Source: an uncultured Anaerolineales bacterium (GTDB taxonomy: Bacteria; Chloroflexota; Anaerolineae; B4-G1). Taken from it: a DNA stretch of 64,000 nucleotides. The stretch covers positions 97,009 to 161,008 of the forward strand of contig CAYYTU010000001.1 of NCBI GenBank assembly GCA_964474655.1, in the 5' to 3' direction. A model generated the notes under the pieces. That model worked only from the letters and a program-made list of their open reading frames with translations, was not told the DNA's origin and searched no databases. Below, one piece after another: positions 47 through 47,957 of the stretch. The position numbers and the translations under genes are program-made. Numbering within the stretch: the first letter of the stretch is position 1; every line of letters starts with the position of its first letter.

Positions 47-452
47 CTATCCATCTTCACCTTCACCCTCACCTTCATCTTCGTCGGGTTTTCTGTCCAC
101 CAGTATCTCCTGGGAGGGCTTTTCGCCAATGGTCGGTTCCACAAACTCATTGGTCAGACGGATGGCCCCGAAGTTGCAGCTATCCTCGCATTGGCCACAG
201 CGGATGCAGCGATTGGGATAGTGGGTCAGGCGAAACTCGTCGCGGCTTTCCCGTTCCAGATCAAGCCCAAAGGCCGGGCAGTCTCGCACACAGGCGCCGC
301 AGCCTCGGCACTGGTCGGGTTCAATTCTGACCCGGCCCCTGAAGTGGAGGGGGATTTCGAGCGGCCCGAAGGGGAAATCGACGGTGATGACCTTCTTGAA
401 TAGTGTCTCCCACAGATGGGGCAACAAATAGATCAACGATTTCAATCGCGAC
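47..452 (-). CDS. nuoI: NADH-quinone oxidoreductase subunit I (2x[4Fe-4S] ferredoxin-type)
   Basis: C-terminal 135 aa of ORF 47..1330 carries two CxxCxxCxxxCP-type motifs (CRGCGACVRDCP, CIRCGQCEDSCN). ATG at 450-452 sits directly after the nuoH stop. The longer N-terminal extension overlaps nuoH in another frame and is rejected. Confidence 0.85.
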
Positions 453-453
453 A

Positions 454-1413
454 TCAGATCAATCCTATCATAATGGTCGCTGCAAGCTGGAGCAAGCCCA
501 GCGGGGCCAGGATGCGCCATCCCAGGCTGGCAAGCTGGTCGATGCGGAGCCGAGCGTAAAGCACGCTTGTCGTGGACAATGTCAGTAGCATAGCGAAGGC
601 CTTGAGGCCGAAGATCAACGCCCGGGCTGTGCCCAGGGGCATTGATCCCTGTAGAAGCGTCAGGTCGCCGCCGCCCAGGAAGATGTTGACCAGCAGGAAG
701 ATGCCCGCCACGGTCTGGATGTGGAGGGTGAGGTGCCAGAGGGCCAGCTTCCGCCCACTGAACTCGGTCAGCGGGCCGCCGACGACCTCCGATTTGGCTT
801 TGGGGATGTCGAAGGGCACCCGCTTCAGCTTGCCGATCAGTCCCACGATCGCCAGCAGGAAGCCGACTGGCTGCACGAAGACCATCCAACTGGCCTCCGC
901 TTGCTGGGCGATGATCTGGGAGATAGACCAGGAGCCGGTGAGGATGGCCGGGGCGCTGAGCGCCATCAGAAAAGGCACCTCGTAAGAGAAGTATTGGAGC
1001 ACGGAGCGACTGCCTCCGATGGCGCTGTAGACGCCGATGGAGACCCATCCCGCCAGGAAGTAGAAGAGGGCCGGAAGGCTGAGCAGGAACAGGACCACGA
1101 TCAGGTCGCCCTCGAAGGCGTAGACCACCCGGCCGCCCACCGGGATGTATAGAGCGGCGGTCAACACCGCTGCCAGGGCTACCAGCGGCAACGCGGTGCA
1201 GATCGGGCGGTCGGCGCCTCGCGGCAGCACGCTCTCCTTGGATAGGAGTTTGATCAGGTCGGCCAAGGGCTGGAACCATGGCGGTCCGACGCGGCCCTGG
1301 AGGCGGGCGATGATTCGGCGATCGATCCACTGGAAGATCATCGCGCAGGCGACCATGAACCCGAAGCCGGGGTAGATTAACACGGTGATCAGGACGAATA
1401 ACAGGTCTTTCAA
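454..1413 (-). CDS. nuoH: NADH-quinone oxidoreductase subunit H
   Basis: 319 aa multi-TM protein with a typical NuoH/ND1 N-terminus (FQWIDRRIIARLQGRVGPPWFQPLADLIKL). Confidence 0.9.
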   Translation of the reverse strand: MKDLLFVLITVLIYPGFGFMVACAMIFQWIDRRIIARLQGRVGPPWFQPLADLIKLLSKESVLPRGADRPICTALPLVALAAVLTAALYIPVGGRVVYAFEGDLIVVLFLLSLPALFYFLAGWVSIGVYSAIGGSRSVLQYFSYEVPFLMALSAPAILTGSWSISQIIAQQAEASWMVFVQPVGFLLAIVGLIGKLKRVPFDIPKAKSEVVGGPLTEFSGRKLALWHLTLHIQTVAGIFLLVNIFLGGGDLTLLQGSMPLGTARALIFGLKAFAMLLTLSTTSVLYARLRIDQLASLGWRILAPLGLLQLAATIMIGLI

Positions 1414-1432
1414 CAGAACCTCCTGGTCATTA

Positions 1433-2515
1433 TCATCGGTCGGCGCAAGCGATGCAGAGATCCACGCCGGAGAGCACGGCCGGCACGTCGGCTACGTTGA
1501 TGTCCTGGATCTGTTCGCGCAGCAGGCTCAGCGCCGGCAGCGTCGGAGTGCGGATCTTGATCCGCGCCGGCTTGTCGGTGCCGTCGCTGCGGATGTAGTA
1601 GATCACCTCGCCGCGCGGCGCTTCAGCGCGGCTGACCACCTCGCCCTCCGGTACCCTCCGACGGGCGCGGGTCGAGACCTCGCCCTCCGGCAGATCGTCC
1701 AGGATCTGATGGCATAGCGAGAGGCTCTCAATCACCTCTCGCACGCGCACGCGGGTAGCGGCCCAGACGTCGCCGCCTGGTTCTGTGATGACCTGGAAGG
1801 AGAGGCGATCGTATGCTGCGTAAGGGGCGTCTCGTCGCAGGTCTCGATCCATTCCCGCGGCGCGGGCCACTGGGCCGACGACACAATGGCGTCGTATCTG
1901 TTCCAGGGACGCTCGGCCCACGCCCTGGGTGCGGACTTGGAGCGTGCGCTCGTTTTCGACCACGTTGAGCAGTTTGTTGACTTGATCCTCCAGCTGGTCG
2001 AGGCGCTGGCGTAGCCCTTCCATCTGGGCGGGTTCGGGGTCTATGCGCACGCCGCCGATCACGTTGACCGCGTGAGCGATGCGCCCGCCGGAGAGATCCT
2101 CCATGATGTCCAGCACGATCTCCCGATCGCGCCAGGAGTACATGAAGATGGTGGTGAACCCGATATTTTCGGCCAGCACGCCCAACCAGAGCAGGTGGCT
2201 ATGAATCCGCTCCAGCTCGCAGAGCAGCGTGCGTAGGGCCAGCCCGCGCGGTGGGACCTCCAGTTCCAACAGGGCCTCCACACCTTGAGCGTAGGTGGTG
2301 GTATGGACGTGGGAGCAGATGCCGCAGACACGCTCCAGCAGGTGGAGGTTCTGGACGTAGTTCCGCTCCTGGGCCAGGCGCTCGATGCCGCGGTGCACGT
2401 AGCCCAGGCGCATTGTGCCTTCCACCACTCGTTCTCCCTCCGCTGTAAGGAAGAAGGAGAGCGGTTCCTTGAGCAGCGGGTGCTGAGGGCCGATGGGGAT
2501 GGTTATTTGGGTCAT
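1433..2515 (-). CDS. nuoD: NADH-quinone oxidoreductase subunit D (49 kDa)
   Basis: 360 aa with NuoD-like motifs (RLGYVHRGIE, CGICS, C-terminal DLCIACADR). ATGA start/stop overlap with nuoC. Confidence 0.9.
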   Translation of the reverse strand: MTQITIPIGPQHPLLKEPLSFFLTAEGERVVEGTMRLGYVHRGIERLAQERNYVQNLHLLERVCGICSHVHTTTYAQGVEALLELEVPPRGLALRTLLCELERIHSHLLWLGVLAENIGFTTIFMYSWRDREIVLDIMEDLSGGRIAHAVNVIGGVRIDPEPAQMEGLRQRLDQLEDQVNKLLNVVENERTLQVRTQGVGRASLEQIRRHCVVGPVARAAGMDRDLRRDAPYAAYDRLSFQVITEPGGDVWAATRVRVREVIESLSLCHQILDDLPEGEVSTRARRRVPEGEVVSRAEAPRGEVIYYIRSDGTDKPARIKIRTPTLPALSLLREQIQDINVADVPAVLSGVDLCIACADR

Positions 2516-3030
2516 GCTTCGTTCTCCTCGCTATTCTCCTCGTCTGATTCTTCTGCTGGCTCTCCTTCTGGCTCTTTCTCACGCATCGGTGGCCCTTGTT
2601 CCCAATCGTCCGGCAGCAGGAGATGCTCCGGGCCGGGATGTCCCTGGAACGTCACATCCAGCATCTCGCCCACCTCCCGCTCGTAGAAGTCGGCGCCGGG
2701 GATGATCTCGGTCAGTGTGCTTATCTGCGCGTCCTCCCGTGGCAGTTTCACTTGCAATGTGATACCGCGCTCGTGCCAGAAGTGATATAGTAGCTCTATC
2801 TCCGTTCCTCTGTCCTGACCAGAGATGGTGGAGAGGTGGTGAATTGAAGGCGTCTCAAGCAGCAGGGCGACTATCTTTTCCAGGCACTCGGCCGGAATCT
2901 CGATGACAATTTCGTCGACGGGGATAACATGGGCTTCGAACGTCTGGTCTGGACACGCCTGGTGAAGGGCATCCAATAGGGCTTTCTTCTCCATCGCAGT
3001 CTTGTCTCCTCCTGCTAACTGTTCAGGCAT
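2512..3030 (-). CDS. nuoC: NADH-quinone oxidoreductase subunit C (30 kDa)
   Basis: NuoC-like (ELLYHFWHERGITLQVKLPRED, FQGHPGPEHLLLPDDW). Start chosen at the ATG (MPEQ) preceded by GAGGAA. Acidic C-terminal tail. Confidence 0.8.
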   Translation of the reverse strand: MPEQLAGGDKTAMEKKALLDALHQACPDQTFEAHVIPVDEIVIEIPAECLEKIVALLLETPSIHHLSTISGQDRGTEIELLYHFWHERGITLQVKLPREDAQISTLTEIIPGADFYEREVGEMLDVTFQGHPGPEHLLLPDDWEQGPPMREKEPEGEPAEESDEENSEENEA

Positions 3031-3553
3031 CTTGTTCCTCGATCTTGGTGCGGCCATGTTCTTCGCTGAAGGTAAAGTCCATCTCCTCCGTTTCCGCAGG
3101 GTCTATGCCAATCTCTTCCTGATCCTTGGTGCCCTCAATTTCCTCCAGCAACTTGGCCAGCCCCGAAATGATCGCTTCTGGTCGGGTGGGGCAGCCGGGG
3201 ATGTAGACATCCACCGGTATGACTTGGTCCACGCCTCCCATCATGTTGTAGCTGCCCTGGAAAGCGCCTCCCGAGCAGGCGCAGGTGCCCACGGCCACCA
3301 CCCACTTGGGCTCGGGCATCTGCTCGTAGATGCGGCGCAGGCGGTCACGCGATTGGCGCGTCACCGGTCCGGTGACCAGCAGGATGTCGGCGTGGCGCGG
3401 CGATGCCTCTTTGAGGATTCCTAGCCGTTCCACATCGTAGCGGGGGGTGAGTAGATCCAGGATCTCGATATCACAGCCGTTGCAGCCTCCGCTGTTGAAG
3501 TGGAGTACCCATGGCGAGCGGCGACGGGCCCACTTCAAAATTCGCTTAATCAT
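3023..3553 (-). CDS. nuoB: NADH-quinone oxidoreductase subunit B (20 kDa, N2 cluster)
   Basis: NuoB signatures: GCNGCDIE, GTCACSGG and YIPGCPTRPEAI cysteine motifs. Confidence 0.9.
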   Translation of the reverse strand: MIKRILKWARRRSPWVLHFNSGGCNGCDIEILDLLTPRYDVERLGILKEASPRHADILLVTGPVTRQSRDRLRRIYEQMPEPKWVVAVGTCACSGGAFQGSYNMMGGVDQVIPVDVYIPGCPTRPEAIISGLAKLLEEIEGTKDQEEIGIDPAETEEMDFTFSEEHGRTKIEEQDA

Positions 3554-3888
3554 TATACATCCCCCTCTTCAATCAGCACCAGCACGCTAATGGCAATCCC
3601 GGCCAGGTAGATTAACCCGCCGGGCCGAAATGCATTCTGCCCTGGCAGGGTAGAGACAGTCAGCGTCGCTATGTGGAGAACGCTGAACATCAAGGCCAGC
3701 CGGAAGAAGGAATGGTAGGCTAGCTTAATTGGAGCGGGCCTTAGGTCCTCACCGCAGGCGTACGGTTCTTCTTTGCCTGGGTGGTCCTCTCCGTGGGCGG
3801 CCAAGGCGCGTCCCAGGCGATAGAGCCCGTAACCCAGTCCCAAATACATAAGCATGACGACGGGGGGACTAAGCAAGATATTTTTCAT
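3553..3888 (-). CDS. nuoA: NADH-quinone oxidoreductase subunit A
   Basis: 111 aa, 3-TM small membrane subunit immediately upstream of nuoB. Start overlaps the nuoB... boundary by 1 nt. Confidence 0.8.
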   Translation of the reverse strand: MKNILLSPPVVMLMYLGLGYGLYRLGRALAAHGEDHPGKEEPYACGEDLRPAPIKLAYHSFFRLALMFSVLHIATLTVSTLPGQNAFRPGGLIYLAGIAISVLVLIEEGDV

Positions 3889-3891
3889 CGT

Positions 3892-5391
3892 TTACCTCCC
3901 CAGCAGGTAAGGGCCGACGCTGCCCATCCAATTCCACCACGGTCCCGGCGAAAGTCCGATAGCTATTACCAGGGATGCGCCCGCGATGAGGGGGAGGGCC
4001 ATCCAGGGCGAGATGCGAATGCGTCCAGTCGCTTCTTCCTCTGGATTGGGTGCTGTGAAGAGCCGCGCGATCAGGGGCAGGTAGTAGCCCAGCGAGACCA
4101 GGCTGTTCAGTAAGAAGATAGCTAGCCCCACGTAGGCCAGCGGCTCTCCCGGTTGTAGAGCCTCGCCCAGGATGAACCATTTGGAGATGAAGCCCGCCAG
4201 CGGCGGCACCCCGGCCAACCCTCCCAGGGCCACGCTGAACGTCATAGCCACCAAAGGCAATCGCGCCGCTGTGCCCTGGAGCTCGGCAATGGTGGTGGTC
4301 TTGAGGTGGAAGTAGCTTACTCCTTTGCTCAGGAATGCCAGGGCCTTCATCACGGCGTGGCTCAGAAGCAAGAAGAAGCCGGCCTGAATAGCCTCTGGTA
4401 TATCATAGCGTAGGCCGATTCCAATACCAAACACCATATAGCCTACCTGGGCGATGGTCGAATAGCCCAGCAGCCGTTTCGTGTCGGTTTGTGCCAGCGC
4501 AATAGTGTTCCCCAGGGTCATATTTGCCAGAGAGATGGCGATCAAGGTCCCGCCCAGCGCCTCTGGGGTCATCCCGACGCCTAGACAGACCTTTAGTAGG
4601 GCGTAAAGTGTGCTCTGGATGATAATTCCAGAGAGCATAGCGCTGATGCTGCTGGGCGCTTTCCCATGTGCGTCCGGCAGCCAGGTATGCAATGGCACCA
4701 GCGCACTCTTCACTCCCAGCCCGACCAGGAAGAAGGCTAACCCAACGCGGGTCTCGGCTCCTAATGAGCCTTGTGACGCGAGGGCGATCGGTGGCAGGAC
4801 TGTGGTTCCTCGCTCCCAGTAGATAAGCGCTACGCCAGCCAGGAAGAACAGCGTACCTACGCTGCCCATCACCAGATATTTGAAACCGGCCTCAATGGCG
4901 GTTCGGCTATGTCTGCGAAAAGCGACTAAGATGTACGCGGCGATACTCATCAACTCACAGAAGATATAGAGGGTAAATAGATCCGCTGCCAGCACGACGC
5001 CGCTCAAGCCGACCACCATCAGCAACAGGAGGGGATAGTAGAGCTTGTGCCGGGGGTCCAAAGTGAGGTAGCGCCCGGAATAGATCGATGCCATACTCCC
5101 CAATCCCAGGGCGACTGCGATGATCACCAGCGCGCCGGGGTCGGCTTGCAGGATGGCGTTTCCTGATTCCACGCTTCTCCACGTCGGTAGTGAGCCGCCG
5201 ACCTGGACTGAATTGCGGGCGGCAAGTCCGAGCGGCACGAGGGTTGCCGATGCCAGGCCGAAGACGAAGGTGGTGAGAGACGCCAGCCAGGTATTGCGGC
5301 CCGTGAGGAGGCGCGCCACCAGATAGATGCCAAACGCTCCCCCTCCCAGGCAGAGCAGCGGGAGGAGGATCCATGTTCCGTCGTTCACCAC
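3892..5391 (-). CDS. nuoN: NADH-quinone oxidoreductase subunit N (antiporter-like)
   Basis: About 500 aa polytopic protein of the Mrp/NuoLMN family. GTG start (VVNDGTW) preceded by GGGAGG, chosen to avoid overlap with nuoM. The ORF-track ATG start lies further upstream. Confidence 0.8.
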   Translation of the reverse strand: MVNDGTWILLPLLCLGGGAFGIYLVARLLTGRNTWLASLTTFVFGLASATLVPLGLAARNSVQVGGSLPTWRSVESGNAILQADPGALVIIAVALGLGSMASIYSGRYLTLDPRHKLYYPLLLLMVVGLSGVVLAADLFTLYIFCELMSIAAYILVAFRRHSRTAIEAGFKYLVMGSVGTLFFLAGVALIYWERGTTVLPPIALASQGSLGAETRVGLAFFLVGLGVKSALVPLHTWLPDAHGKAPSSISAMLSGIIIQSTLYALLKVCLGVGMTPEALGGTLIAISLANMTLGNTIALAQTDTKRLLGYSTIAQVGYMVFGIGIGLRYDIPEAIQAGFFLLLSHAVMKALAFLSKGVSYFHLKTTTIAELQGTAARLPLVAMTFSVALGGLAGVPPLAGFISKWFILGEALQPGEPLAYVGLAIFLLNSLVSLGYYLPLIARLFTAPNPEEEATGRIRISPWMALPLIAGASLVIAIGLSPGPWWNWMGSVGPYLLGR

Positions 5392-6854
5392 GCACCTCCC
5401 AGGATCAAAGGCAGCTCGTGGACCACCCAATCGGAGAGCATGGCCGGGAAGATACCCTCAATCAGCGTCAAAGCGGTCAGCAGCACCGATGGCGCGACAA
5501 TGGCCCAATGGGGCTTCTTCGTGGTGAGACCCTCCGGTAAGGCCCCAAAGAATATCTCGATCATCAGCTGCACCGCATAGACCACGGTCAGCAGCGAGCC
5601 CAGCAGCGTGACGACGGAGAGTCCGACGTGGGCGGTGTGGAATCCTCCGGAGAAGATCATCCACTCGCTGTTGAATATGCCCAGGGGCGGCATGCCGGCG
5701 ATGGCTAACGCACCCAATCCCATACAGATCGCAGCCGTGGGCATTTGATTCCCCAAGCCTCCCAGCTCCGTGATAAGGCGTCGCCCGGTGCTTTTAAGGA
5801 CCCATCCCGCTCCCATAAACAGAAGCGCCTTGACGATGGCGTGGTAGACGACGTGAAGCGTGGCGCCTGTGATCCCGTCGGCGGTCAGAGTCCCCAGGCC
5901 AAAGAGGATATATCCCATCTGGCTCACGCTGGAATAGGCGATGATGCGCTTGATGTCTTTCTCTGCCAGCGCCATCAATGCCCCGTATATTTCGGAGAAG
6001 ACACCTCCTATCATCATAGGGAGGGCAAAGTTGGTCATCTCCGCTCGGGAGAAGATGCTCAACGGGAAACGCAAGATGCCATAGGTGCCCATGCTGAGCA
6101 TAGCGGCGGCCAACATAATCGTCACTGGCATAGGAGCAACGGTGTGAGCGTCTGGTAACCAGAGGTGGACCGGGAAGACGGCCATCTTGACGCAGAAGCC
6201 TACCAGGAAAAGCCCAATGATTGTCTTCGTCAGGCCGGGGGATAGGGATATGCCGGCCCGCAGGGCCGAGAATTTATCGGTCCCAGTGGCGTCATAGAGC
6301 ATGATCAATCCCACTAAAACTAACAGCGACCCTAGATGGGTGAAGATGAAATATTTAAGCGCTATCGGCCCTCTCCGTTCGCCTTCTCCCCAGACGAGGA
6401 TGAGAATGGACGAAGCAATTAACATCAGCTCCCAGAAGACATAGAAGAGCACCATATCGTCAGCCAGGGTGGTGCCAGACATTCCGACTGCAAAAAGGAG
6501 CAGCAGGGCGTAGAAGGTGCCACTGCGCTCGTCATGTTTATGGTACCCCCAGCTGTAGATGATGGCGACCAGGGTCACCGCGGCTTCTGTGATCAGGAAG
6601 GGGAAGGTAAGCCAATCTACGTGCAAGTCGAACTCTATGCCCACCGCAGGGATCCAGGATATGGCTATTGGAGGCACCTCACCGCGGTAGAGCGCTGGAA
6701 GCATAGTCAACGTGGTCACCAGCGTGATAGCGGCGCTTGCCCCGGCGATCCAGCCAGCGAAACGAGTGCTCCTTCCGCGTAACAAGAAGAGTACCACTGT
6801 GGTGGCAAGCGGTACAACCAGAATGCTCAGCAGTCCTATTGCTTCTGCAGTCAT
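5385..6854 (-). CDS. nuoM: NADH-quinone oxidoreductase subunit M (antiporter-like)
   Basis: Typical NuoM/ND4 sequence (WLPDAHTVAPMPVT, KRIIAYSSVSQMGY). Start at MTAEAIG, preceded by GGGAG 8 nt upstream. Confidence 0.85.
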   Translation of the reverse strand: MTAEAIGLLSILVVPLATTVVLFLLRGRSTRFAGWIAGASAAITLVTTLTMLPALYRGEVPPIAISWIPAVGIEFDLHVDWLTFPFLITEAAVTLVAIIYSWGYHKHDERSGTFYALLLLFAVGMSGTTLADDMVLFYVFWELMLIASSILILVWGEGERRGPIALKYFIFTHLGSLLVLVGLIMLYDATGTDKFSALRAGISLSPGLTKTIIGLFLVGFCVKMAVFPVHLWLPDAHTVAPMPVTIMLAAAMLSMGTYGILRFPLSIFSRAEMTNFALPMMIGGVFSEIYGALMALAEKDIKRIIAYSSVSQMGYILFGLGTLTADGITGATLHVVYHAIVKALLFMGAGWVLKSTGRRLITELGGLGNQMPTAAICMGLGALAIAGMPPLGIFNSEWMIFSGGFHTAHVGLSVVTLLGSLLTVVYAVQLMIEIFFGALPEGLTTKKPHWAIVAPSVLLTALTLIEGIFPAMLSDWVVHELPLILGGAW

Positions 6855-6882
6855 AAGTGTTTCTCCCATTGTCAGCCGGCGG

Positions 6883-8694
6883 CTACCAGCAGGTCAGGGT
6901 TACCACCAGCGCCAGCATCAGGCTCAAGGGTATCCACATCAAGTTGTGGCGCAGCAGGCCGGTGTGGTAGCGCCTTGTCTCCCGGCTGAGCGCCAATACT
7001 CCTTGCGTTGTGCGCTTGATAATGCCTTCCAGCCCCTCTTGCTCCACGAAGCGGTAGATGATGCGAGATCCATCCACGACGGCCTGCACGCTCAGTACGA
7101 TGAGTTGCTCCAGGAAGCCCACCTCGACGATGGCGCGTAAGGCTTGGGCGGCATGCGCCAGTCCTTCTTGTAGATCGTACGTGGTCTCGATCTGTTCTCC
7201 AGCCGCAGGGCCTGGCATTTGTAGCTTGATGCGAGATCGTTTTTGCATACGCCACAGGAAGAGAACCAGCGTCATAATCAGCAGCAGAGCCGGGGTAAAG
7301 ACGAGATAACGCAAGAGGGTGCTCAGCGTGGGGACCGGAGGGGGAGCATAGCCGGCTATATCGACTAGCCGACGGGACAGCGGGCCGGCGGTCGAGGTGC
7401 CGATCAGCACTACCAGGCCTAATGTCCCTACTGCTGCCCATCGACCGATGGAGCTGGAAGCACCTTCGGTCGTTTCGGGTGAGCGTGACGCTTCGCGCAC
7501 GGCCCAGACCGTCAACAAGGCGACGGCGGCCTCAGCGACGAAGAGGGCATCCAGAGGTGCCCCTCTCTGCCGCGCCCACCAGGTGATCAGCAATCCGGAG
7601 GCGGCCAGGGCCAGACCGGCCAGGGCAAATAGCCCCTGCATCGCTCGCCCCGGGAGAGAAGTTTCTCCTCTCTCTGGTGCTTCCCCGGTCAGGAAAAGTA
7701 GAATCTGGAGCGGCGTCGTCGCCAGCAACCCCAGCCACACGACCACTTTCATACCGGAGGCTGCGGCGAAGACCAGCAGCCCACCCCGGGCCGCGGCGAT
7801 GTAGATCAGGGCGCTGCGCAGATCGCGGCGAGTCAGGGCCGTGAGCACAGCCAACATTGCAGCGCCGGCTCCCAGCCACAGGATGAGTGTCTCTACTGCC
7901 GCGTTGGGTGTCAGGAGGGATGTGACGCGGTAGAGCAGGTATACGCCCAGATTGGGCATAACGGTGGTGAAGAGCCATGCCTGAGTGTTCGCCGCGAGGG
8001 AGCGCCCCCAGCCGATCCACAGGTGGAGCGGCCAGTTGCCGAGTTTGACCCAGACAGCCAGCAGCAAGCCGAAGACGACCCATCCTATGCCCGGTGCAGC
8101 CAGTGCGTCGGCTGCCTGGAGCGCCGGGGTGATCTCAAGGGTCCCGCTGGCGTCGAACAGGATCAGAATGGCGCTGAGCAATCCTACGTCGCCCAGACGC
8201 AGCACCACGTAAATGAGCCAGAACCCTCGCCCTCCTCGGTCGCTGCGCAGCTCGACCAGCGGCGCCAGGGCGATGGAGAGCGCCACAATCTCCAGGGCCA
8301 CGTAGCGGGCCAGGAAGTGCTCGGTGAGGAAGGCTACGCTGGACGCCGCCAACGCCGATAACATCAGGGCCAGCGAAAGTGGAGGCACTTCCGTGTCAGT
8401 CGAAGTAGTCCCCAGCAGGGCCAGAAACGCGGCCCAGGTGGTAACCAGCGCGGCGTACAAACCGGTGGGGCCCAGGCCAAAGGCCATCGGGCCGGTTCCG
8501 GGCAGCCATTCCAGGGTTAGATTGGGATCTTCTCCAGCCAGAGGTAGCAGCGCTGTGGCGCACAAAGCCGTCGCGGCGCTCGCGAAGAGGGCCACTCCTC
8601 TTGCTGAGCGTGGGGAGCGGCGCAGGAAGAGCACGATCACCAGGCTGGTCAAGAACGGTAATCCGAAGAGGGCCACGAGTAACTCGTTGCTCAT
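6883..8694 (-). CDS. nuoL: NADH-quinone oxidoreductase subunit L-like (divergent antiporter-like subunit with C-terminal lateral helix)
   Basis: 603 aa in the position of nuoL. RLGDVGLL motif. The C-terminal amphipathic stretch plus final TM resembles the NuoL HL helix. Otherwise divergent; the GWEGVGL-type motif is absent. Confidence 0.7.
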   Translation of the reverse strand: MSNELLVALFGLPFLTSLVIVLFLRRSPRSARGVALFASAATALCATALLPLAGEDPNLTLEWLPGTGPMAFGLGPTGLYAALVTTWAAFLALLGTTSTDTEVPPLSLALMLSALAASSVAFLTEHFLARYVALEIVALSIALAPLVELRSDRGGRGFWLIYVVLRLGDVGLLSAILILFDASGTLEITPALQAADALAAPGIGWVVFGLLLAVWVKLGNWPLHLWIGWGRSLAANTQAWLFTTVMPNLGVYLLYRVTSLLTPNAAVETLILWLGAGAAMLAVLTALTRRDLRSALIYIAAARGGLLVFAAASGMKVVVWLGLLATTPLQILLFLTGEAPERGETSLPGRAMQGLFALAGLALAASGLLITWWARQRGAPLDALFVAEAAVALLTVWAVREASRSPETTEGASSSIGRWAAVGTLGLVVLIGTSTAGPLSRRLVDIAGYAPPPVPTLSTLLRYLVFTPALLLIMTLVLFLWRMQKRSRIKLQMPGPAAGEQIETTYDLQEGLAHAAQALRAIVEVGFLEQLIVLSVQAVVDGSRIIYRFVEQEGLEGIIKRTTQGVLALSRETRRYHTGLLRHNLMWIPLSLMLALVVTLTCW

Positions 8695-8695
8695 A

Positions 8696-8998
8696 TCAGC
8701 CTCGCAGCCTGTCCAGCTCGTCTATGTCCCCGGAGGGATAGTACTCGTAGATGTTGATGAGCAAGGCCAGCGCGACGGCGATCAGGATAGTCTCGACCAC
8801 TAAGGCGGAGATGGCGATGCTTTGTACGGTGTAGAGATCTCCTTTGACGTGGCCCTGGTAGATCAGGATTAGCGTCACGCCTTGTAACATAATTTTGAGC
8901 CCGATCACCTGTTTAATGGCTTCGCGCTGAGTGAGCAGGCAGCCCAGTCCCAGCAAGAATATCAGCCCGCTCCCGGAGAAGAAGATTATTTCTTCCAT
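8696..8998 (-). CDS. nuoK: NADH-quinone oxidoreductase subunit K (4L)
   Basis: 100 aa, 3-TM. Real start MEEIIFF lies inside the longer ORF 8696..9160. Confidence 0.85.
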   Translation of the reverse strand: MEEIIFFSGSGLIFLLGLGCLLTQREAIKQVIGLKIMLQGVTLILIYQGHVKGDLYTVQSIAISALVVETILIAVALALLINIYEYYPSGDIDELDRLRG

Positions 8999-9000
8999 AC

Positions 9001-9478
9001 CTACCTCTCTTTTTGTCCCTCTTCTGGGGGCATAAGTGCTGCTATGCCGAGTGCACCGGCGAACATAAGCCCCACCTGGACGGCAACGTCGAGTTCCCTG
9101 TATTCCCACCACCAGGCACGGAACGACATTGTCGGTGGGGTTTGGGGGCTCCAAACCCATCGGCCCACCAGGATGCCTGTTGTCAGTAGCACCGCCAGGA
9201 GGATGGCCCAGAAGCCAAATCTACGGCGCATTGCTCCCCCCTCGCATTGATTCCGTGAGGCTGATGACCACTATGAAGAGCACGCTGATCAACCCAGCGC
9301 CCACGCTGAGCTCGAATGCTCCTGCAAACGGTGCGTCCAGGTAAAAGAACAACGCGGCCAGAGCGGCGCTGCTGATTCCCAGCGCCACCGCTGACCGTAG
9401 CAGATTCTTGGAAATGACTGCTGCGAAAGCGCCGCTAACCACCGTCAGCAGCAGAATCATCGTAACCCAAAGGTTCAT
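9001..9478 (-). CDS. nuoJ: NADH-quinone oxidoreductase subunit J, split by a -1/+1 frameshift in a G6 run at 9226-9231
   Basis: N-terminal 85 aa (MNLWVTMILLLTVVSGAFAAV...ESMRGGSNAP*) and a C-terminal 76-aa ORF (MRRRFGFWAILLAV...) together make a full-length NuoJ. The two overlap by 11 nt. Removing one G from GGGGGG restores a single ~160-aa reading frame. GGAGG lies 6 nt before the ATG at 9478. Confidence 0.65.
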
Positions 9479-9750
9479 CCCTGGCCTCCATCTTCTATCT
9501 TGCGGCTTGCGCTGCGATTCCGCGCTCCATCGTACGTCTCGGCATCTCTGTTGCCGCTTCCAATTATCCCGCCAGCAGACCTCCCCCGATGAAAAGTTTT
9601 GGTCGGGAGACTGGGCAAAGGAGGGATGGGATGCGGCAGAGATCAAATGATGGTTGTTATTCTATCATATGAGATGAACGGCGCAACTCAACGATTAAGG
9701 GAGAGGTTAGGGGGTCTGATCGAGATACGGTAGTTGCGGCGACCGTCGGC

Positions 9751-11112
9751 TTATAGTAGCAGAGGCCCCAGCACGTAATACGCCAGCCCAAAGTAGATCA
9801 ACAGACCGGTGATGTCCTTGATAGTGGTGATGATCGGGTCTGCTCCGACGGCCGGATCTGCCCCTAGCTTGGTCAGCAAATAAGGTATCAGGAAGCCCAG
9901 CGTAGTCGCCAGGGTTATGGTCAGGGTCAGTGAGAACCCGACCACCAGACCGAGGGAGACCATACCATGCCAGATGACCGCGATGCTTCCGGTGATCAGC
10001 CCCAAAGCAGCGCCTATGCTCAGGCCGACGCCCGCTTCGCGCAGCAGGTGCTTGCTAAACTGGTGCAGGTTGATATGTCCCAGCGCCAGAGCCCGGGCGA
10101 AGATGGTCGTGGATTGGGTCCCGGCGTTACCGCCCATGTCCATCACGACTGGGATGAAGACCGCCAGCACCGGAATACCCTGGAGAGTGGCCTCGAAGGC
10201 ATCGATCACGGACCCGGCCAGCAATCCGCCGACCATCGTGATCAGCAAGAAGGGGATGCGCACCGGCCAGATGTCCGACAGCGCGCCGTTCACCAGGCGG
10301 TAGCTGCGATGCGCATCGCCCTTCAATGGAGTCAGAGCAGCCTTGTCGAAGAAGTCCTCGGTGACCTCCTCCTCCATAATCTCCATCGCGTCATCGATGG
10401 TGATGACGCCCACCAGGCGCCGGTCGTGATCCACGACGGGCAGGCTCAACAGGTCGTGGTGCTGGAGCAAGCGGGCGGCCTCCTCCTGGTCGGTGTCGGT
10501 GCTGGCCCAGATCACCTCGGTATCCATAAGTGAGGCTATACTCTCGTTCGGCCTGGCCAAAACGAGGCTTTGGAGGGAGACTTTTCCCAGCAAGCGTCTT
10601 TCGGCGTCGGTCACATAGAGGATGTGGATGGCTTCCTGGCGTCCCACCTGGCGTATCTTATCCAATCCTTCCGCAGCTGTCATACCGTGGGAGAGCCGTA
10701 CGTACTTGGGCGTCATAACGCGCCCGGCGCTCTCCGGCTTGTAGCCCAGGAGCAAGTTGACCTGATCTCGCTCGTCAGGTGGCAGAGCTTCGACCAGGCG
10801 CTTGGCGATGGCAGCCGGTACTTCATCTAACAGACGGACCCGATCGTCAGGGGCCAGCGCGGTGAAAATGCGGGTTGCTTCCTCTTGGGTGAAAGAGGAG
10901 ATGAGGTGTTGACGCTGCTCGACGTCAAGCTGCTCGAAGAGTGCCAAAGCCTGGTCCTTGCTCAGCAGGCGGAAGATGACGACGCGCTCGTCGGGCGTCA
11001 GATTCTCAACCAGAACCCGTAAATCATCCATATCGGGTCGGTTGAGCGTAGATTTGAGCTTTTGCACCTCCCCCGCCTCCAGCTGCTTTTTGGTGATTTG
11101 ATAAAGGTCCAT
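9751..11112 (-). CDS. mgtE: magnesium transporter MgtE
   Basis: 453 aa: N-terminal MgtE_N, tandem CBS domains, C-terminal MgtE membrane domain (PVVMDMGGNAGTQS). Confidence 0.9.
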   Translation of the reverse strand: MDLYQITKKQLEAGEVQKLKSTLNRPDMDDLRVLVENLTPDERVVIFRLLSKDQALALFEQLDVEQRQHLISSFTQEEATRIFTALAPDDRVRLLDEVPAAIAKRLVEALPPDERDQVNLLLGYKPESAGRVMTPKYVRLSHGMTAAEGLDKIRQVGRQEAIHILYVTDAERRLLGKVSLQSLVLARPNESIASLMDTEVIWASTDTDQEEAARLLQHHDLLSLPVVDHDRRLVGVITIDDAMEIMEEEVTEDFFDKAALTPLKGDAHRSYRLVNGALSDIWPVRIPFLLITMVGGLLAGSVIDAFEATLQGIPVLAVFIPVVMDMGGNAGTQSTTIFARALALGHINLHQFSKHLLREAGVGLSIGAALGLITGSIAVIWHGMVSLGLVVGFSLTLTITLATTLGFLIPYLLTKLGADPAVGADPIITTIKDITGLLIYFGLAYYVLGPLLL

Positions 11113-11167
11113 CGGTAGCCTCCAGTATAAAGTTAGGTGACGTGCTTGTTTAAGCCAGATAACGGGC

Positions 11168-11195
11168 TGGTCAAAGACAGTTTACCAATACTCTC
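11168..11195 (-). promoter_or_regulatory. candidate sigma70-type promoter for mgtE (TTGACA-16nt-TAAACT on minus strand)
   Basis: Reverse complement reads TTGACAccaaggagagtattggTAAACT about 55 nt upstream of the mgtE ATG. GGAGG SD precedes the ATG. Confidence 0.3.
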
Positions 11196-11308
11196 CTTGG
11201 TGTCAAGTTAGTCTGCTCCGTTTACCCGTCGCGCTATTATGTTGACTTCTGACCCGATACTGGTAGAATAGCTATGACGTGTATGTGGATTAGGCCATTG
11301 AGACTTCA

Positions 11309-11456
11309 CTCCTGCAGCCTAGTGACTCCAGACTTCGGAAGTCTTCGTTGAGGATTTTGGATGCAAAATAACCCCGCTTTGCTTCCCAATTGGGTTCGCA
11401 AACCACATTTTAAGACTTCCGATGTCTCTGTTCCTCAAATTTGAAACGTGCAGGAG
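11309..11456 (-). repeat. MITE-like ~150-bp intergenic repeat, copy A (inverted relative to copy B)
   Basis: Reverse complement aligns nearly base-for-base with 43686..43835. Terminal inverted repeats CTCCTGCA(C/G)...CTGCAGGAG. Internal palindromes GACTTCGGAAGTC and GCTTCCGAAGTCT. Confidence 0.8.
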
Positions 11457-11930
11457 GCAAGTTGAGATGGCACTGGATAGCCTGTCACGATCTGGCAGCA
11501 TGTGGTGTACGGCTAATCCCTCCTTATGCTTATCTGTCCGTATCAGATTGTTTTAATTGGCATCGCAATCGATCGAGCGGACATCAACCAATCAATCTAC
11601 TCACAGCTCCGCATCTTCCTTATACTTCCGGTAACTTCCAGCCTCCCCGGCCTGGGGGGTCAAGATGACCTATATTCTTAATCTTTCCCAATTGACATTG
11701 GGTCTGTTGTTGATCCAGACAACCCGTGGCGTTTCCGGCTGCCTCGCTGGTAGTGGGGGCTTCCGGCGCTTGCTTCTGAGCGTGTGTGGTGAAAAGCGCC
11801 CCCACGCGGTAGCAGGGCAAAAAGGGCCTGGCCAAGAGCCACTGACTGCTGGAAGGGAGGTGAGCTATCGAACGAACCGTTGGAAAGCGTATTTGCACAT
11901 CGTTCAACATCTCACAAAATAAGGAGGATT

Positions 11931-27840: not shown

Positions 27841-28197
27841 TTACAGATCGAACAGGTAGCGCAATCTCTCGGTCACTTTTGCTCTCAGCGGTGGCGATAG
27901 ATCCCCGATCTCACGCCGGATGATGGACGTGCTGACCGTCATCAGGCGATGTAGCCGAAGCACTGATGAGACCCGCAGGCCCGTCCTGGCGAAATCGGGA
28001 TGGTTGGTATCTATCACAATGTCCGTTTCCAACAAATTGTTGGGGGCTTGACTGGTGATAAACGCCAAGATGACGTGGTTGTAGGGGCCAAGAGGCTCAG
28101 TCATGCAGACAGCTGGTCGCACCTTCGTCGTTGTGAGGTCGTCGAAGGGGAAGGGAACCAGGACAACTTTACCCTGCGTCGTGGAATGGCTTCCCAT
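27841..28197 (-). CDS. type II toxin, PemK/MazF-family mRNA interferase
   Basis: GKVVLVPFPFDDLTTTKVRPAVCM N-terminus is typical of MazF/PemK. 118 aa. Confidence 0.75.
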   Translation of the reverse strand: MGSHSTTQGKVVLVPFPFDDLTTTKVRPAVCMTEPLGPYNHVILAFITSQAPNNLLETDIVIDTNHPDFARTGLRVSSVLRLHRLMTVSTSIIRREIGDLSPPLRAKVTERLRYLFDL

Positions 28198-28423
28198 CGT
28201 CCAGCGAGTAGATGTCCTCTTCGGGCTCTTTTAGGAAGTCGAAGGCCGGGTTGGAAGCAGCCGCTTGCAGCCACTCGGCTTCGTCTATATCGGATGCTTC
28301 TTCGACCAGGATGATGACCCGCACGCGGCTTGGGCCAGCGAAGGGGAGTGGCTCGTCTAGGAGCAGACGTTGCTGCTCGTCGACAGTTCCTGTCGTTTCT
28401 ATCGCTTTCTTCAAGGATGTCAT
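28169..28423 (-). CDS. putative cognate antitoxin (DUF2281-like acidic C-terminus)
   Basis: 84 aa, overlaps the toxin start by 29 nt. C-terminal EAEWLQAAASNPAFDFLKEPEEDIYSLDD pattern. Confidence 0.55.
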   Translation of the reverse strand: MTSLKKAIETTGTVDEQQRLLLDEPLPFAGPSRVRVIILVEEASDIDEAEWLQAAASNPAFDFLKEPEEDIYSLDDGKPFHDAG

Positions 28424-28556
28424 CTATTGCTCCTTTGCACCCGACGTTAAGCTCGCTGGTATGTTACCATAGGTTTTGGCAAAGACAACTCGTTGGATAT
28501 GACAGGGTGAGCGCATTTAGTTTCCAATTTGCAAAACGATGGCGAACCTCTGCTTT

Positions 28557-28627
28557 TTTAGACAGGATTCACAAGAGTGACAATCTTTTTTATCAAACCT
28601 ATTCTGGGAATCCTTTTCATCCTGTCT
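28557..28627. promoter_or_regulatory. 11-bp perfect inverted repeat pair (TTAGACAGGAT ... ATCCTGTCTAA) in AT-rich region between the TA operon and ccmA
   Basis: Arms at 28557-28567 and 28617-28627, about 50 bp apart. Encloses a GTGACA-17nt-TATTCT promoter-like stretch. Confidence 0.4.
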
Positions 28628-28657
28628 AACAAACACAAACGCGTTTCCCCGATTGGA

Positions 28658-29357
28658 TATGATGATCGAAGTCCGTAACCTGGTGAAGTCCTTCGGCCCC
28701 CGCACCGCTCTGGCGGGGGTTGATCTATCGGTGAACGAGGGCGAGTTCGTGACCCTGGTCGGGCCGAACGGCGCGGGTAAGACCACCTTGTTGCGCGTCT
28801 TGGCCACGCTGGCCCGCCCGACGTCGGGCGCGGTGCGCATCGCCGGGATGGACTTAGCCCACGAAGGAGACCAGGTTCGACGCCGTATCGGTTTTCTTTC
28901 CCATCGCACCCTGCTTTACGACGATCTGACCGCCGAGCAGAACCTGCGCTTCTACGCCCAGATGTACGATCTGGACGGTGACCGGGAGCGCATCGGCGAG
29001 CTGCTGGATCGCGTTGATCTTACGATGCGACGCCGCGATATGGTGCGCACGTTCTCGCGCGGGATGAAGCAACGCCTCTCGTTGGCCCGCGCGGTGCTCC
29101 ATCGTCCGTCCGTGTTGCTTCTGGACGAACCGTACACCGGGCTCGATCCGCAAGCCGCCGAGGCTCTGACGGCCCTCCTGGGCGAGCTGGCCGAAGAGGG
29201 GGGCACCATCCTGCTGACCACGCATAACTTAGGGCGCGGCCTGGCGATGGGGCAGCGAGTCGTGTTGCTGAATCGAGGGCAGGTCGTCCTCGACGAGCGT
29301 CGCGAGGCCCTGGAGGACGATCAGTTCGCGGAAACCTATCGCATGCTCACTGCCTAG
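28658..29357 (+). CDS. ccmA: heme exporter ATP-binding protein CcmA
   Basis: ABC ATPase Walker A GPNGAGKTT, signature SRGMKQRLSLA, Walker B LLLDEP. Followed by ccmB and ccmC. Confidence 0.85.
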
Positions 29358-41869: not shown

Positions 41870-42375
41870 TGGTCGGGCAGTCTCCTGACTGAGTATAAGA
41901 TGCTGGTACTCCATCTTCGGGTTATTCATCTGCTCCCGATGGAGGAGAAGGTGGATTGTCCAGTGTCAATTCGGCTGGTCGTCTCCCTCCGGCGGCGGAA
42001 GCGATTGTATCACGCGACAGCGGCGGCGTCAAATCTTTCTTGAGGTTATGCTTGTGAGCCGTGAGGTGACGTTGCAGTTGAGAAAAATAAGTGGGTTCTC
42101 TGGGATGCTCAGAGCGGGTTTGTAACCTGCGTCGGCTCACCTCAGAATAGTGGGGTAAGTGGTCAACTTGCAGGGGGCGGTAGGTATGGACGCCGAATAC
42201 GTGCCTTACATTCCTCAACTCCACATATGTAGGTCGGGTTTCCATACCCGACGATTTTTCCAACGGAGCTCCAATACCCCCCCACTGATTTGATAAGAGC
42301 CAGAGCCAATAAGTGCTTGCAGGGAGGTTGCGCTGGGGTATAATAACGCTTCCTCTGAAAGTTCTGGGAGATGAT

Positions 42376-43521
42376 ATGCGTCAACTATTTGAGGCTGGGC
42401 TTTTTAAGGGCATGTTGGTAGGCGGGCTGATGGCCCTGGTCGCGTTGGCTATCTGGATCTGGCCTGGCCCGGGGTTACCGGGCGATGCGCCAGCGCCCAC
42501 CGCTACCCCGTCTGCGTTGGTGACGGGTGGTGCTGTTGAGGTGACAATTTCTCCCGACGAGAAATCCGAAGCATCTGAAAGCCCAAGTGCCACCCCAAGC
42601 GCCACGGCGTTGCCCACAATCACGCCGCTATTTAGCCCCCCGCCGAGTGCCGCGCCTACGTCTACCGCGACACCCGTGCCTTCCTCCACCCCGACGCCGG
42701 AGCCCAGTCCCAGTCATACGCCCGGCCCAACCAGCCCGTCGCCTTCTTCTCCCGCGCCCAGCTCGACCAGCGATGATGCGGATTCCAGCCCGATTGAGAC
42801 GATGGAGTGGTCGCTTGCAGGGCGCGTTGAGCAGGGGGCTTACCCCAGCTACGTGACGGATGATATAGAATCGTATCTGATCTATCTGCCACCGGATTAC
42901 GCCCAGGGCGATCGACGTTATCCGGTGCTTTACCTTTTGCACGGCTGGCCTTACGATGAATCCCACTGGAATAGCCTGGGGGTCAGCGAGGTTGCCGACA
43001 GGGCTATCGTGAGCGGGACGTTGTCCTCGCTTATTATTGTGATGCCCGGCGCCAGGGAGAGGATCTACATCCAGACGAGCGGCGGCGACCATTCCTTCGA
43101 AGGACAAGTTGTGAACGATCTTATACCCCATATCGACGCGAGCTATCGCACCCAGGCCGATCGTCAGGGACGGGCCATCGGCGGCATATCACGGGGAGGC
43201 GTCTGGTCGTTGGAGATTGGCTTCCGTAACGCGGAGCTGTTCGGGGCGGTCGGGGCCCATAGCCCGGCCCTCTCGGTCAATAATGCCTTGCCGGCCTATG
43301 ATCCCTTCAACCTGATGTCGGAACCCGGTGTATCCGAGCTGCGCATCTACCTGAGCGTGGGGGATAGAGATTGGGCCTGGAAATCGACCGAGGCGCTGCA
43401 CGAAGCGTTGACTGAACAGGCGATCGCCAGCGACCTGGCTGTGCACGAGGGTAGCCATCGGAGCACGCTCTGGTCCGAGCACCTGGACGAGTATCTGGCG
43501 TTCTACACCGCGACGTGGTGA
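42376..43521 (+). CDS. esterase-family alpha/beta hydrolase with N-terminal TM anchor and Pro/Ser/Thr-rich linker
   Basis: C-terminal domain has putative-esterase features (YLPPDY...PVLYLLHGW, GISRGG nucleophile elbow). Start MRQLF after GGGAG. Confidence 0.7.
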   Translation: MRQLFEAGLFKGMLVGGLMALVALAIWIWPGPGLPGDAPAPTATPSALVTGGAVEVTISPDEKSEASESPSATPSATALPTITPLFSPPPSAAPTSTATPVPSSTPTPEPSPSHTPGPTSPSPSSPAPSSTSDDADSSPIETMEWSLAGRVEQGAYPSYVTDDIESYLIYLPPDYAQGDRRYPVLYLLHGWPYDESHWNSLGVSEVADRAIVSGTLSSLIIVMPGARERIYIQTSGGDHSFEGQVVNDLIPHIDASYRTQADRQGRAIGGISRGGVWSLEIGFRNAELFGAVGAHSPALSVNNALPAYDPFNLMSEPGVSELRIYLSVGDRDWAWKSTEALHEALTEQAIASDLAVHEGSHRSTLWSEHLDEYLAFYTATW

Positions 43522-43614
43522 CGTAGGGCAATTGTGGGATTACTTTTGCTCCAGTGCGATAAATGCAATTACCCTGGTGGTAACGGCGACTCGCTTGACG
43601 GGCGGAAGCGTGAA

Positions 43615-43647
43615 GGCCGGGTTTCGTCACGAACCCCGGCTTTTTGG
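43615..43647 (+). terminator. intrinsic terminator after the esterase gene
   Basis: GGCCGGGTTTCGtcaCGAACCCCGGC followed by TTTTT. Confidence 0.7.
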
Positions 43648-43685
43648 ATGCTTAGCAGAACCCAGTGAGTACCTCAAGAACTTGA

Positions 43686-43835
43686 CTCCTGCACTTTTCA
43701 TATTTTTGAGGAGCAGAGACTTCGGAAGTCTTAAAATGTGGTTTGCGAACCCAATTTGGAAGCAAAGCGGGGGTATTTTGCATCCAAATTCTCGACGATA
43801 GGCTTCCGAAGTCTGGAGTCGCTAGACTGCAGGAG
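43686..43835 (+). repeat. MITE-like ~150-bp intergenic repeat, copy B
   Basis: CTCCTGCAC...CTGCAGGAG terminal inverted repeats. Internal GACTTCGGAAGTC palindrome. About 90% identical to the reverse complement of 11309..11456. Confidence 0.8.
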
Positions 43836-43917
43836 TTAAGTTGGGGCACGGTCGGGAGACCGGCCCGAGCAACGTTCACAAAACTAGTGGTAGTGGATAT
43901 CCTCTCCACTTATGACC

Positions 43918-46356: not shown

Positions 46357-46484
46357 AGTGTGCTTATTATCGCCGAGTGGGAGGATTTGTCAATCTGACC
46401 ACTCGGGGGGGCGAAGGAATAGGTTGACAAGCGCTTTGGTTGACGTACAATCGAGACAGGTTATTTGGAGAAGGGATCTATTCT

Positions 46485-47333: not shown

Positions 47334-47363
47334 TCACGTTATCTACGCAGAAAGGATGTTCCA

Positions 47364-47957
47364 ATGGATAAGCTACGTTTGTTTGTCGCGATTCCACTGC
47401 CTGAGGTCCTGTTGGACCGGCTGGCCGATCTTCAGCATCGCTTGAAGGGCAAGGTCCCGCACAAGAGCGTGCGTTGGGTCCGGCCTTCAGGTATCCATCT
47501 GACGCTCAAGTTCTTGGGCGATACGCCGAAGGATAAGGTGCCGACGATCAGCGAGGCGCTGACGGTGGTGGCGCGGAACGCGCCGCCTTGCGATCTCTCC
47601 GCCGAAGGACTGAGCTGCTTTCCCCATCCGGGCCGCCCTCGCGTGTTGTGGGTCGGCGTGGAGGAGCCGACAGGGCGGCTGAAGGCGCTGCAAGAGGCCG
47701 TCGAGGAGGCGATGACGGGGCTGGGGTACAAGCCGGAGCGGCACAGCTTCACGCCGCACCTGACGTTGGGGCGCGTGCGACGCGGCACCTCTCGGCAGGA
47801 CGAGGCGCAGATTGGCGAGCTGGTCACCGGTATGACGGTGGAGCCGCTGGCCGCGTTCGAGGCTGATCGGTTCGAGCTGATCCAGAGCGTACTCAAGCCC
47901 AGCGGCGCTGAGTACACCACGCTAGAGACGTTTTTGCTGCAAGAGGGAGGATTCTGA
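47364..47957 (+). CDS. thpR: RNA 2',3'-cyclic phosphodiesterase (LigT/ThpR, 2H family)
   Basis: Two HxT/Sx motifs (HLTLKF, HLTLGR). Confidence 0.8.
   Translation: MDKLRLFVAIPLPEVLLDRLADLQHRLKGKVPHKSVRWVRPSGIHLTLKFLGDTPKDKVPTISEALTVVARNAPPCDLSAEGLSCFPHPGRPRVLWVGVEEPTGRLKALQEAVEEAMTGLGYKPERHSFTPHLTLGRVRRGTSRQDEAQIGELVTGMTVEPLAAFEADRFELIQSVLKPSGAEYTTLETFLLQEGGF

Follow-up and report, generated by a model that had tools for sequence, protein, structure and literature searches.

Two inverted copies of a nested repeat

The 64,000-nucleotide (nt) stretch of DNA analysed here, referred to throughout as the window, comes from an uncultured member of the Anaerolineales (Chloroflexota) and carries two copies of a short intergenic repeat bounded by inverted ends. 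Copy A occupies positions 11303-11462 of the forward strand (160 nt, 46% GC) and copy B occupies positions 43680-43841 of the reverse strand (162 nt, 45% GC), 32 kb away. Copy A lies within the 818-nt spacer that separates the divergent genes for mgtE (9751-11112, reverse strand) and for the E1alpha and E1beta components of pyruvate dehydrogenase (PDH). Copy B lies between two convergent genes, an esterase gene (42313-43521, forward strand) and an SLT/TPR gene (43918-46356, reverse strand), with a terminator-like hairpin 44 nt away. Both placements and the terminator had been proposed in the original prediction made from the sequence of the window, and all were borne out. The two genomic contexts have nothing in common. 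Relatives of the MgtE protein bear Anaerolineae and Chloroflexota labels, in line with a host from that group.

The same prediction described two inverted copies that align base for base, and over 165 aligned columns they are 88.5% identical. A and B are the sole long inverted pair reported for the window by a repeat finder, and a 30-nt probe allowed up to three mismatches finds exactly these two sites, against zero expected by chance. The limits first given for the copies (11309-11456 and 43686-43835) located them correctly but were too narrow, as homology extends about 6 nt beyond each end. We set the boundaries by comparing four left ends and two right ends, aligning A and B with copies on two other contigs, L001 and L007. 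The boundary bases are ACTT...AAGT, with one extra A/T outside in most cases. The base composition of the element is foreign to its hosts: its 45-46% GC compares with 61% in the window and with 57-60% in the flanks of L001, L007 and a viral contig, L008.

The element was predicted to be non-coding, and no frame is open across all copies, every frame containing stops in at least one of them. The open reading frames (ORFs) called across the copies, at 11319-11501 (reverse strand) and 43532-43801 (forward strand), are spurious, as had been suggested, and they have the peptide GSLKMWFANPI.KQSG.ILHP in common only because both translate the repeat. Nothing scored when a six-frame peptide probe was run against an index of 5.8 billion proteins, and an exhaustive HMMER search with the spurious ORF yielded no protein family. 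Three HMMER matches were rejected as element copies; these are proteins of 513-2,632 amino acids that align at 31-41% identity in several short stretches.

The layout of the element (left arm, P1, core, P2, right arm) is one of nested inverted repeats. The left outer arm consists of a terminal inverted repeat (TIR), AACTTnACTCCTGCA, and a 12-nt spacer; the right outer arm consists of a spacer of 20 nt in A or 22 nt in B, followed by TGCAGGAGnCAAGTT. A TIR of 9 bp had been claimed, and this length proved an underestimate: the two ends pair over 15-16 nt with one to two mismatches, and the left end of the L007 copy would pair with the right end of copy B without a mismatch. P1 (AGACTTCGGAAGyCT) and P2 (AGACTTCCGAwGTCT) are each 15-nt near-palindromes in which the centre base (G or C) is unpaired, and P1 and P2 are also inverted repeats of each other (AGACTTCGGAAGTCT / AGACTTCCGAAGTCT). 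They had been called perfect palindromes, which is correct for P1 of A and P2 of B but not for P2 of A and P1 of B, each of which has one mismatch. The core between them is 68-69 nt long in the family copies and is non-palindromic.

On the forward strand in copy A, the left TIR ACTTCACTCCTGCAG (11303-11317) is complementary, with two mismatches, to the right TIR GTGCAGGAGGCAAGT (11448-11462), which was placed by alignment and boundary comparison. A palindrome scan places P1 (AGACTTCGGAAGTCT) at 11330-11344, a 15-mer that recurs identically in L001, L007 and L008, and P2 (AGACTTCCGATGTCT) at 11413-11427, where the one mismatch is an uncompensated substitution. The 68-nt core spans 11345-11412, of which the final 25 nt, AATTGGGTTCGCAAACCACATTTTA, vary hardly at all among family members. 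On the reverse strand in copy B, the scan places P1 (AGACTTCGGAAGCCT, one mismatch) at 43800-43814 and P2 (AGACTTCCGAAGTCT) at 43717-43731, on either side of a 68-nt core at 43732-43799. This modular anatomy, with an inner doublet like that of the bacterial repeats known as REPINs, goes beyond the original prediction, as do a reversed core in L007 and a palindrome pair held in common with a phage contig. The anatomy also led us to drop an attC site, a retron non-coding RNA, a remnant of a group II intron and an IS200/IS605 end, because the element has neither an R''/R' core-site consensus nor a reverse transcriptase or other partner gene, is of the wrong size, and has inverted, not direct, ends.

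Copies in other organisms and the evidence for mobility

Where else does the element occur? The most conserved 22-mer of the core has no match in 185,579 species-representative genomes and a single match among metagenome contigs. That contig, L001, matches the element at 82-86% identity over the left 145 nt, and the right end is missing. The end structure (TIR, gap, palindrome) was sought in the same 185,579 genomes and gave five matches, of which one is real: L007, in which the element stands at one end of a 145-kb contig from Anaerolineae bacterium F17_41, again without its right end. The other four are chance matches, three of them (L003, L004 and L006) in coding-like sequence and the fourth (L005) extending over 13 nt only. 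Pairwise identity among the four copies (A, B, L001, L007) is 81-89%. The flanks of the L001 and L007 copies are unrelated to those of A and B; the flanks of A and B are likewise unrelated to each other (flank z ~0), and homology between these two copies ends sharply at the inverted-repeat ends. At least three assemblies contain the 160-nt unit, at intergenic sites that are unrelated to one another.

These observations bear on whether the two copies reflect a mobile family, as first proposed, or a one-off local duplication in this genome with no mobility. The latter would agree with the count of two copies in the window and its ~20-kb extensions, but it is effectively refuted by the copies with unrelated flanks on other contigs and in other organisms, and the abrupt end of homology at the inverted repeats also speaks against it; we regard it as highly improbable. 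The proposal of a mobile family gains from the L001 and L007 copies, while transposition itself is something that we infer.

The L001 copy is interrupted by a complete insertion sequence (IS) of the IS1380 family (L001 170-1679), whose 427-amino-acid transposase is encoded at 324-1607 (NF033539 at 99 bits, below the cutoff of 180; PF13701). An IS landing in this copy is what one would expect if the element were dispensable DNA. The IS has 77-nt imperfect inverted ends with an internal subrepeat (CGCATATAGAnCC..TTCTATTC), and no clear target duplication. It was rejected as the parent of the element because these ends are its own and differ from those of the element.

We interpret A and B as members of a small, sparse and undescribed family of non-autonomous foldback mobile DNA in some Anaerolineae, similar in the broad sense to miniature inverted-repeat transposable elements (MITEs), and assign this interpretation a probability of roughly 0.55. 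The comparison to MITEs is based on the element's small size, lack of coding capacity, bounding TIR, foreign base composition and intergenic location, on its occurrence at unrelated sites in several genomes and on its tolerance of an IS insertion. Such an element would be moved, now or formerly, in trans by a transposase encoded elsewhere, which would recognise the terminal repeats and probably also P1, P2 and the 25-nt block beside P2. The present copies, at 81-89% identity, are probably old, inert passengers. Any effect that they have would be incidental, with A located in a long leader of the PDH operon and B forming a large hairpin between convergent genes.

Bacterial MITEs and foldback repeats include Correia in Neisseria, ERIC/IRU in Enterobacteria, RUP in Streptococcus pneumoniae and Nezha in cyanobacteria. 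The element resembles these in its length of 100-200 nt, its lack of coding capacity and of a transposase of its own, its TIRs and the potential of the whole element to form a hairpin, as well as in an intergenic, often co-transcribed position and a composition richer in AT than that of the host. It differs from them in that it has no sequence similarity to any family tested, a target-site duplication (TSD) at one copy only, no identified cognate IS and an apparently much lower copy number, and in that it contains an extra inner near-palindrome pair and a conserved internal 25-nt block. We therefore view it as an undescribed family of a known kind of bacterial repeat, which makes it a biologically modest find.

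What marks of insertion do the copies bear? Copy A is flanked on both sides by TTGAG(A), a possible TSD with its left copy at 11298-11302 and its right copy at 11462-11466, the latter overlapping the last T of the element. A chance match of at least 4-5 nt has a probability of ~0.5-2% per copy, and a TSD can be read only at A and B, the right ends of L001 and L007 being missing. TTGAG also occurs 3 nt beyond the right end of B and 3 nt beyond the left end of L001, the same offset in both cases (post hoc P = 0.0015), and is found at or 3 nt outside four of six element ends. The pattern reflects either longer termini in some copies (CTCAA-N-AACTT...) or a target preference. The left ends of B and L007 come 1-2 nt after strong hairpins (-16.7 and -31.5 kcal/mol), which in turn lie behind the upstream genes. 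In relatives of the L007 host, in which the gene adjacent to the element (PALP) is 80-84% identical, no element is present downstream of the PALP gene, and the spacer at the orthologous spot measures 67-70 nt in two of them (L023, L024) and 249 nt in a third (L025). This absence fits a lineage-specific insertion, with the far side missing from L007.

A number of findings weigh against a mobile family. For copy B, neither boundary has a direct repeat within 3 nt. No autonomous element with ends of this type (AACTTGACTCCTGCA) was found, and no transposase, integrase or Y1 domain was detected in the 38 window ORFs scanned. No cognate IS lies beside the exact end-pattern matches in the 185,579 species genomes and the viral contigs, a search in which exact matching could miss a diverged parent. 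No empty site was found; relatives (74-82% protein identity) do not share the gene order upstream of mgtE, no record was found for the esterase product, and contigs on the SLT and E1beta sides end inside the element. Copy number looks low, ~84 kb of this genome containing two copies and F17_41 yielding a single exact match. The copies of other organisms match B about as closely as A does, which could reflect selection for a function instead of a recent spread. Finally, conservation is strongly uneven, contrary to what would be expected if selfish copies were simply decaying: the 25-nt block is nearly invariant, and P1, P2 and this block together have 4/55 variable columns, compared with 22/56 across the left spacer and the other parts of the core (Fisher P = 9e-5). 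Part of the interior is thus constrained, most simply as a protein-recognition region.

The family looks sparse. No copy beyond A and B was detected with an nhmmer family profile in the window, its ~20-kb extensions or ~190 kb of related Anaerolineae DNA, and blastn against plasmids and phages gave no match. A literature search returned no record of the palindrome, of the run or contig accessions, or of MITEs in Anaerolineae.

In the window's own organism the element is reproducible, both copies being present in all three independent Logan assemblies. Two contigs from these data, L002 and L027, end exactly 30 nt into a 35-nt stretch that is identical in A and B, which is explained by branching of a k=31 graph at a two-copy repeat. 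As the ends of these two contigs match the k=31 prediction, their breaks were rejected as a sign of inversion polymorphism or of extra copies. A third contig (L022, SRR7048219) ends inside copy B at the equivalent of ~43743, 17 nt short of the predicted branch; a further B-like variant or a single-nucleotide polymorphism in that sample could account for this. At about position 50 of L002 (SRR7048227), which corresponds to window position 11365, one T of copy A is missing (GGA-GCAAAA versus GGATGCAAAA), reflecting either a strain variant or an assembly error.

The catalogue of small non-autonomous repeats in Chloroflexota is very thin; almost every genome from this phylum is metagenome-assembled, with contigs broken by repeats. 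A defined consensus would explain contig breaks, prevent spurious ORF calls such as the two found here, and mark horizontal exchange among Anaerolineae and their phages.

Folding, core reversal and the inner palindrome module

Each copy had been predicted to fold into a hairpin, and indeed both strands fold far better than shuffled sequences do (RNA z = -3.5, -4.1, -5.0 and -6.2; DNA z = -3.8 and -6.0). Could the element be a structured non-coding RNA, a small RNA gene or a cis-regulatory leader present twice by chance? Strong folding on both strands and a conserved internal block would suit such an RNA, as would the position of copy A upstream of the E1alpha gene and 33 nt downstream of a good promoter-like site. 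The Rfam search proposed along with the original prediction was negative at gathering thresholds for the whole window. Even at E <= 10, a search of both spacers gave no match to the element, the two weak chance matches falling elsewhere in the copy B spacer; there was no match at E <= 1 on L001, L007 or L008, and none in the 470 nt from copy A to the E1alpha start. Compensatory change is seen at 0 of 31 predicted pairs in the four P1-to-P2 segments, with an unfavourable covariation term. The two substitutions in the long stem both break pairs, and opposite a left-TIR position that varies among the copies (C, A, A, G) the right side always has C. Nor do the contexts agree, A being in a 5' leader and B in a 3' region between convergent genes, and the symmetry is that of DNA inverted repeats. 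The absence of Rfam matches and compensatory change, the variable TIR position and the reversed core of L007, which would invert and destroy any strand-specific RNA, point to a repeat at the level of DNA, and an RNA is in our judgement quite improbable.

The core reversal in L007 is evident from its alignments. The outer arms match the same-side arms of the other copies (24/29 on the left, 7/8 on the right); the 69-nt core matches the other cores at 52-59 of 69 positions as its reverse complement, compared with 37-39 of 69 in the forward direction. Site-by-site comparison shows that P1 of L007 joins the 'inside' flank of P2 in the other copies to the 'outside' flank of their P1, which implies a crossover within the 15-nt palindromes. 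An assembly artefact is unlikely to be responsible, since a 15-nt inverted repeat is far shorter than any assembly k-mer (k=129 according to the name of the L007 contig). Three of the four copies (A, B and L001) have the core in the same orientation, and contigs from three samples likewise show one orientation, running from the outer arm through the palindrome into the core as in the window and breaking elsewhere. It is only when organisms are compared that both orientations appear. The most economical explanation for the reversed core would be one recombination event between the inner inverted repeats, and the flip does not look like a working switch.

Invertons and other phase-variable switches, among them fimS, the cwpV switch and the promoter inversions of Bacteroides, have inverted repeats of 10-30 nt and a segment that occurs in both orientations. 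The element is similar in that inverted repeats flank a segment present in both orientations. It is different in that the segment is 68 nt long with no internal promoter, there is no recombinase nearby, and the orientations differ only between organisms. A second comparison is offered by plastid non-coding DNA, where hairpin-associated small inversions are reported to be common at short inverted repeats (reviewed in PMC12371153). In those cases, the loop between short inverted repeats is reversed across lineages with breakpoints within the repeats, as in L007 relative to A, B and L001. Those inversions concern organelle genomes and unique loci, whereas the one reported here lies inside a dispersed bacterial repeat.

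The paired-palindrome pattern also led to L008, a viral contig with genes for capsid, portal and the large and small terminase subunits. Upstream of genes, the spacers of L008 contain two direct copies of the arrangement P1, 70-nt core, P2 and a further single P2; the palindrome module also adjoins the small-terminase gene. The 15-mers are identical to those of the element, and identity reaches 18-22 nt when flanks are included (CTCCAGACTTCGGAAGTCTTCG, 22 nt, in A and L008b). L008 is without the outer TIR, and homology of its cores to those of the element was rejected (z <= 2.1). Directly 5' of P2 in L008 is the tetranucleotide GTAG; at the corresponding place the four family copies have TAAG, ATAG or GAAG. 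Over six modules, the core lengths are 68, 68, 69, 69, 70 and 70 nt, a similarity partly forced by the search, which allowed gaps of 55-80 nt. The complementarity of the core halves does not exceed that of shuffles in five of the six modules (z from -0.6 to 2.8, weakly significant in B). Other spacings and looser patterns, applied to the viral collection only, gave no further match, and a viral match in L021 was discarded as a chance match inside a gene.

One explanation for the palindromes is a DNA-level regulatory or recombination cassette, in which they would be sites for a dimeric protein, either a repressor or a recombinase, common to a phage, and the core would be a programmed invertible segment. 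The palindromes, spaced 83-85 bp from centre to centre, and the 25 nt by P2 are nearly invariant while the rest drifts; identical 15-mers enclose a non-homologous core of the same length in L008; and the L007 core is inverted exactly between the palindromes. We nevertheless find a cassette improbable. The same orientation is found in three of four copies, the contigs of three samples give no sign of mixed orientations, no promoter-like site was found inside the element, no recombinase or candidate regulator lies nearby, the contexts of A and B share nothing, and the similarity in spacing owes something to the search pattern.

We assign the same low probability to the idea that the inner module is an independent unit common to Anaerolineae chromosomes and phages, with palindromes that would serve as recognition sites for a recombinase or a hairpin-binding transposase that flips or exchanges the core. 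Compatible with it are the near-invariance of the palindromes and the 25-nt block, the enclosure of an unrelated core of equal length by identical palindromes in L008, and the precise reversal of the core in L007. If true, the inner module would be the smallest known invertible or exchangeable cassette, located inside a mobile foldback element.

The main rival to a MITE-like family is a REPIN-like origin. REPINs are REP doublets that form hairpins and are mobilised by RAYT transposases (Bertels and Rainey; PMC3337134, PMC3116915), and the commonest spacing of those in P. fluorescens GI is 71 bp (PMC3337134). By this explanation the inner palindrome doublet would be the mobile unit, moved as single-stranded hairpin DNA by a single-copy Y1 transposase (RAYT / IS200-IS605-type) without target duplication, and the outer arms would lengthen the hairpin. 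The inner module does match published REPIN anatomy (PMC3337134), with short, imperfect palindromes of 15 nt whose asymmetric centre base (G or C) marks orientation, inverted around a poorly conserved, lineage-variable spacer of 68-70 nt in an extragenic location. L008, in which a singlet stands beside two doublets with identical palindromes, unrelated cores and GTAG directly 5' of P2, agrees with it, as do the missing TSD of copy B and the two left ends 1-2 nt after strong hairpins. The core halves of the element, however, are not self-complementary, whereas REPIN spacers keep the hairpin. The element looks sparse where REPINs number in the hundreds, its abundance in the DNA covered falling far under their typical tens to hundreds; no RAYT or other Y1 transposase is encoded in the window; and the four family copies have TAAG, ATAG or GAAG, not GTAG, 5' of the palindrome. 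They also possess a clear outer TIR, which is missing from REPINs, and their host belongs to the Chloroflexota, REPINs having been described mostly in Proteobacteria. We consider a REPIN-like origin unlikely and continue to favour the non-autonomous foldback family. The flipped core and the palindrome pair found in phage are the only features that might repay further work, and they hint at a possible protein recognising AGACTTCNGAAGTCT.

Neighbouring features and additional repeats

The spacer between mgtE and PDH-E1alpha (11113-11930) is unusually long at 818 nt and is AT-rich. It contains a promoter-like site on the forward strand at 11242-11269 (TTGACT-16-TGgTAGAAT; 10/12 matches, extended -10) that reads into copy A from 33 nt upstream and would yield a leader of ~650 nt containing the copy; we treat this site as context only. 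The same applies to two hairpins beside copy B. The terminator-like hairpin with its T-run after the esterase gene is on the forward strand at 43619-43636, 44 nt from the right end of the copy. On the reverse strand, downstream of the SLT/TPR gene, a GC-rich hairpin of -16.7 kcal/mol with the motif GGTCTCCCGACCG spans 43844-43866 and ends 2 nt before the left end of copy B. Here the 13-mer GGTCTCC(C/T)GACCG, at 43849-43861, forms the hairpin abutting the copy. It occurs exactly once in the 64-kb window, four times in L008 (at 1481, 2428, 3553 and 12308) and once in L001 (at 1816), and may be a second short repeat or a terminator motif common to these hosts and phage.

L008 contains other repeats as well. 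Five copies of a C/G-rich 49-nt unit (CCCCCATTCCCTCCCACGGAGGG.ATTGAGGGG...) are located at 4519-4666 and 7205-7325, three of them in tandem by the capsid gene, and short repeats of the CCTACTCCCTACTCC type are found at 773-995, 1649-1684 and 2385-2418.

Elsewhere in the window, no AT-rich island is big enough for an IS. One of the few AT-rich patches (28301-28700) adjoins a gene for a MazF/PemK-type toxin on the reverse strand at 27841-28197 (PF02452, E = 4e-12). Beyond the SLT/TPR gene, the region 46440-49370 encodes a ThiF-family E1-like enzyme, a 2',5'-RNA-ligase/LigT-like protein (a label taken from the annotation of L022), a 149-amino-acid protein without a Pfam match and a SLOG cluster-4 protein; together these look like a nucleotide-signalling or conflict system. 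At the other end, downstream of mgtE, positions 47-9646 hold a large cluster for an Mrp/Mbh-type antiporter and a group-4 [NiFe]-hydrogenase or complex-I-like assembly, which is also present in L015, and the arrangement of this cluster next to mgtE is conserved in a relative (L014).

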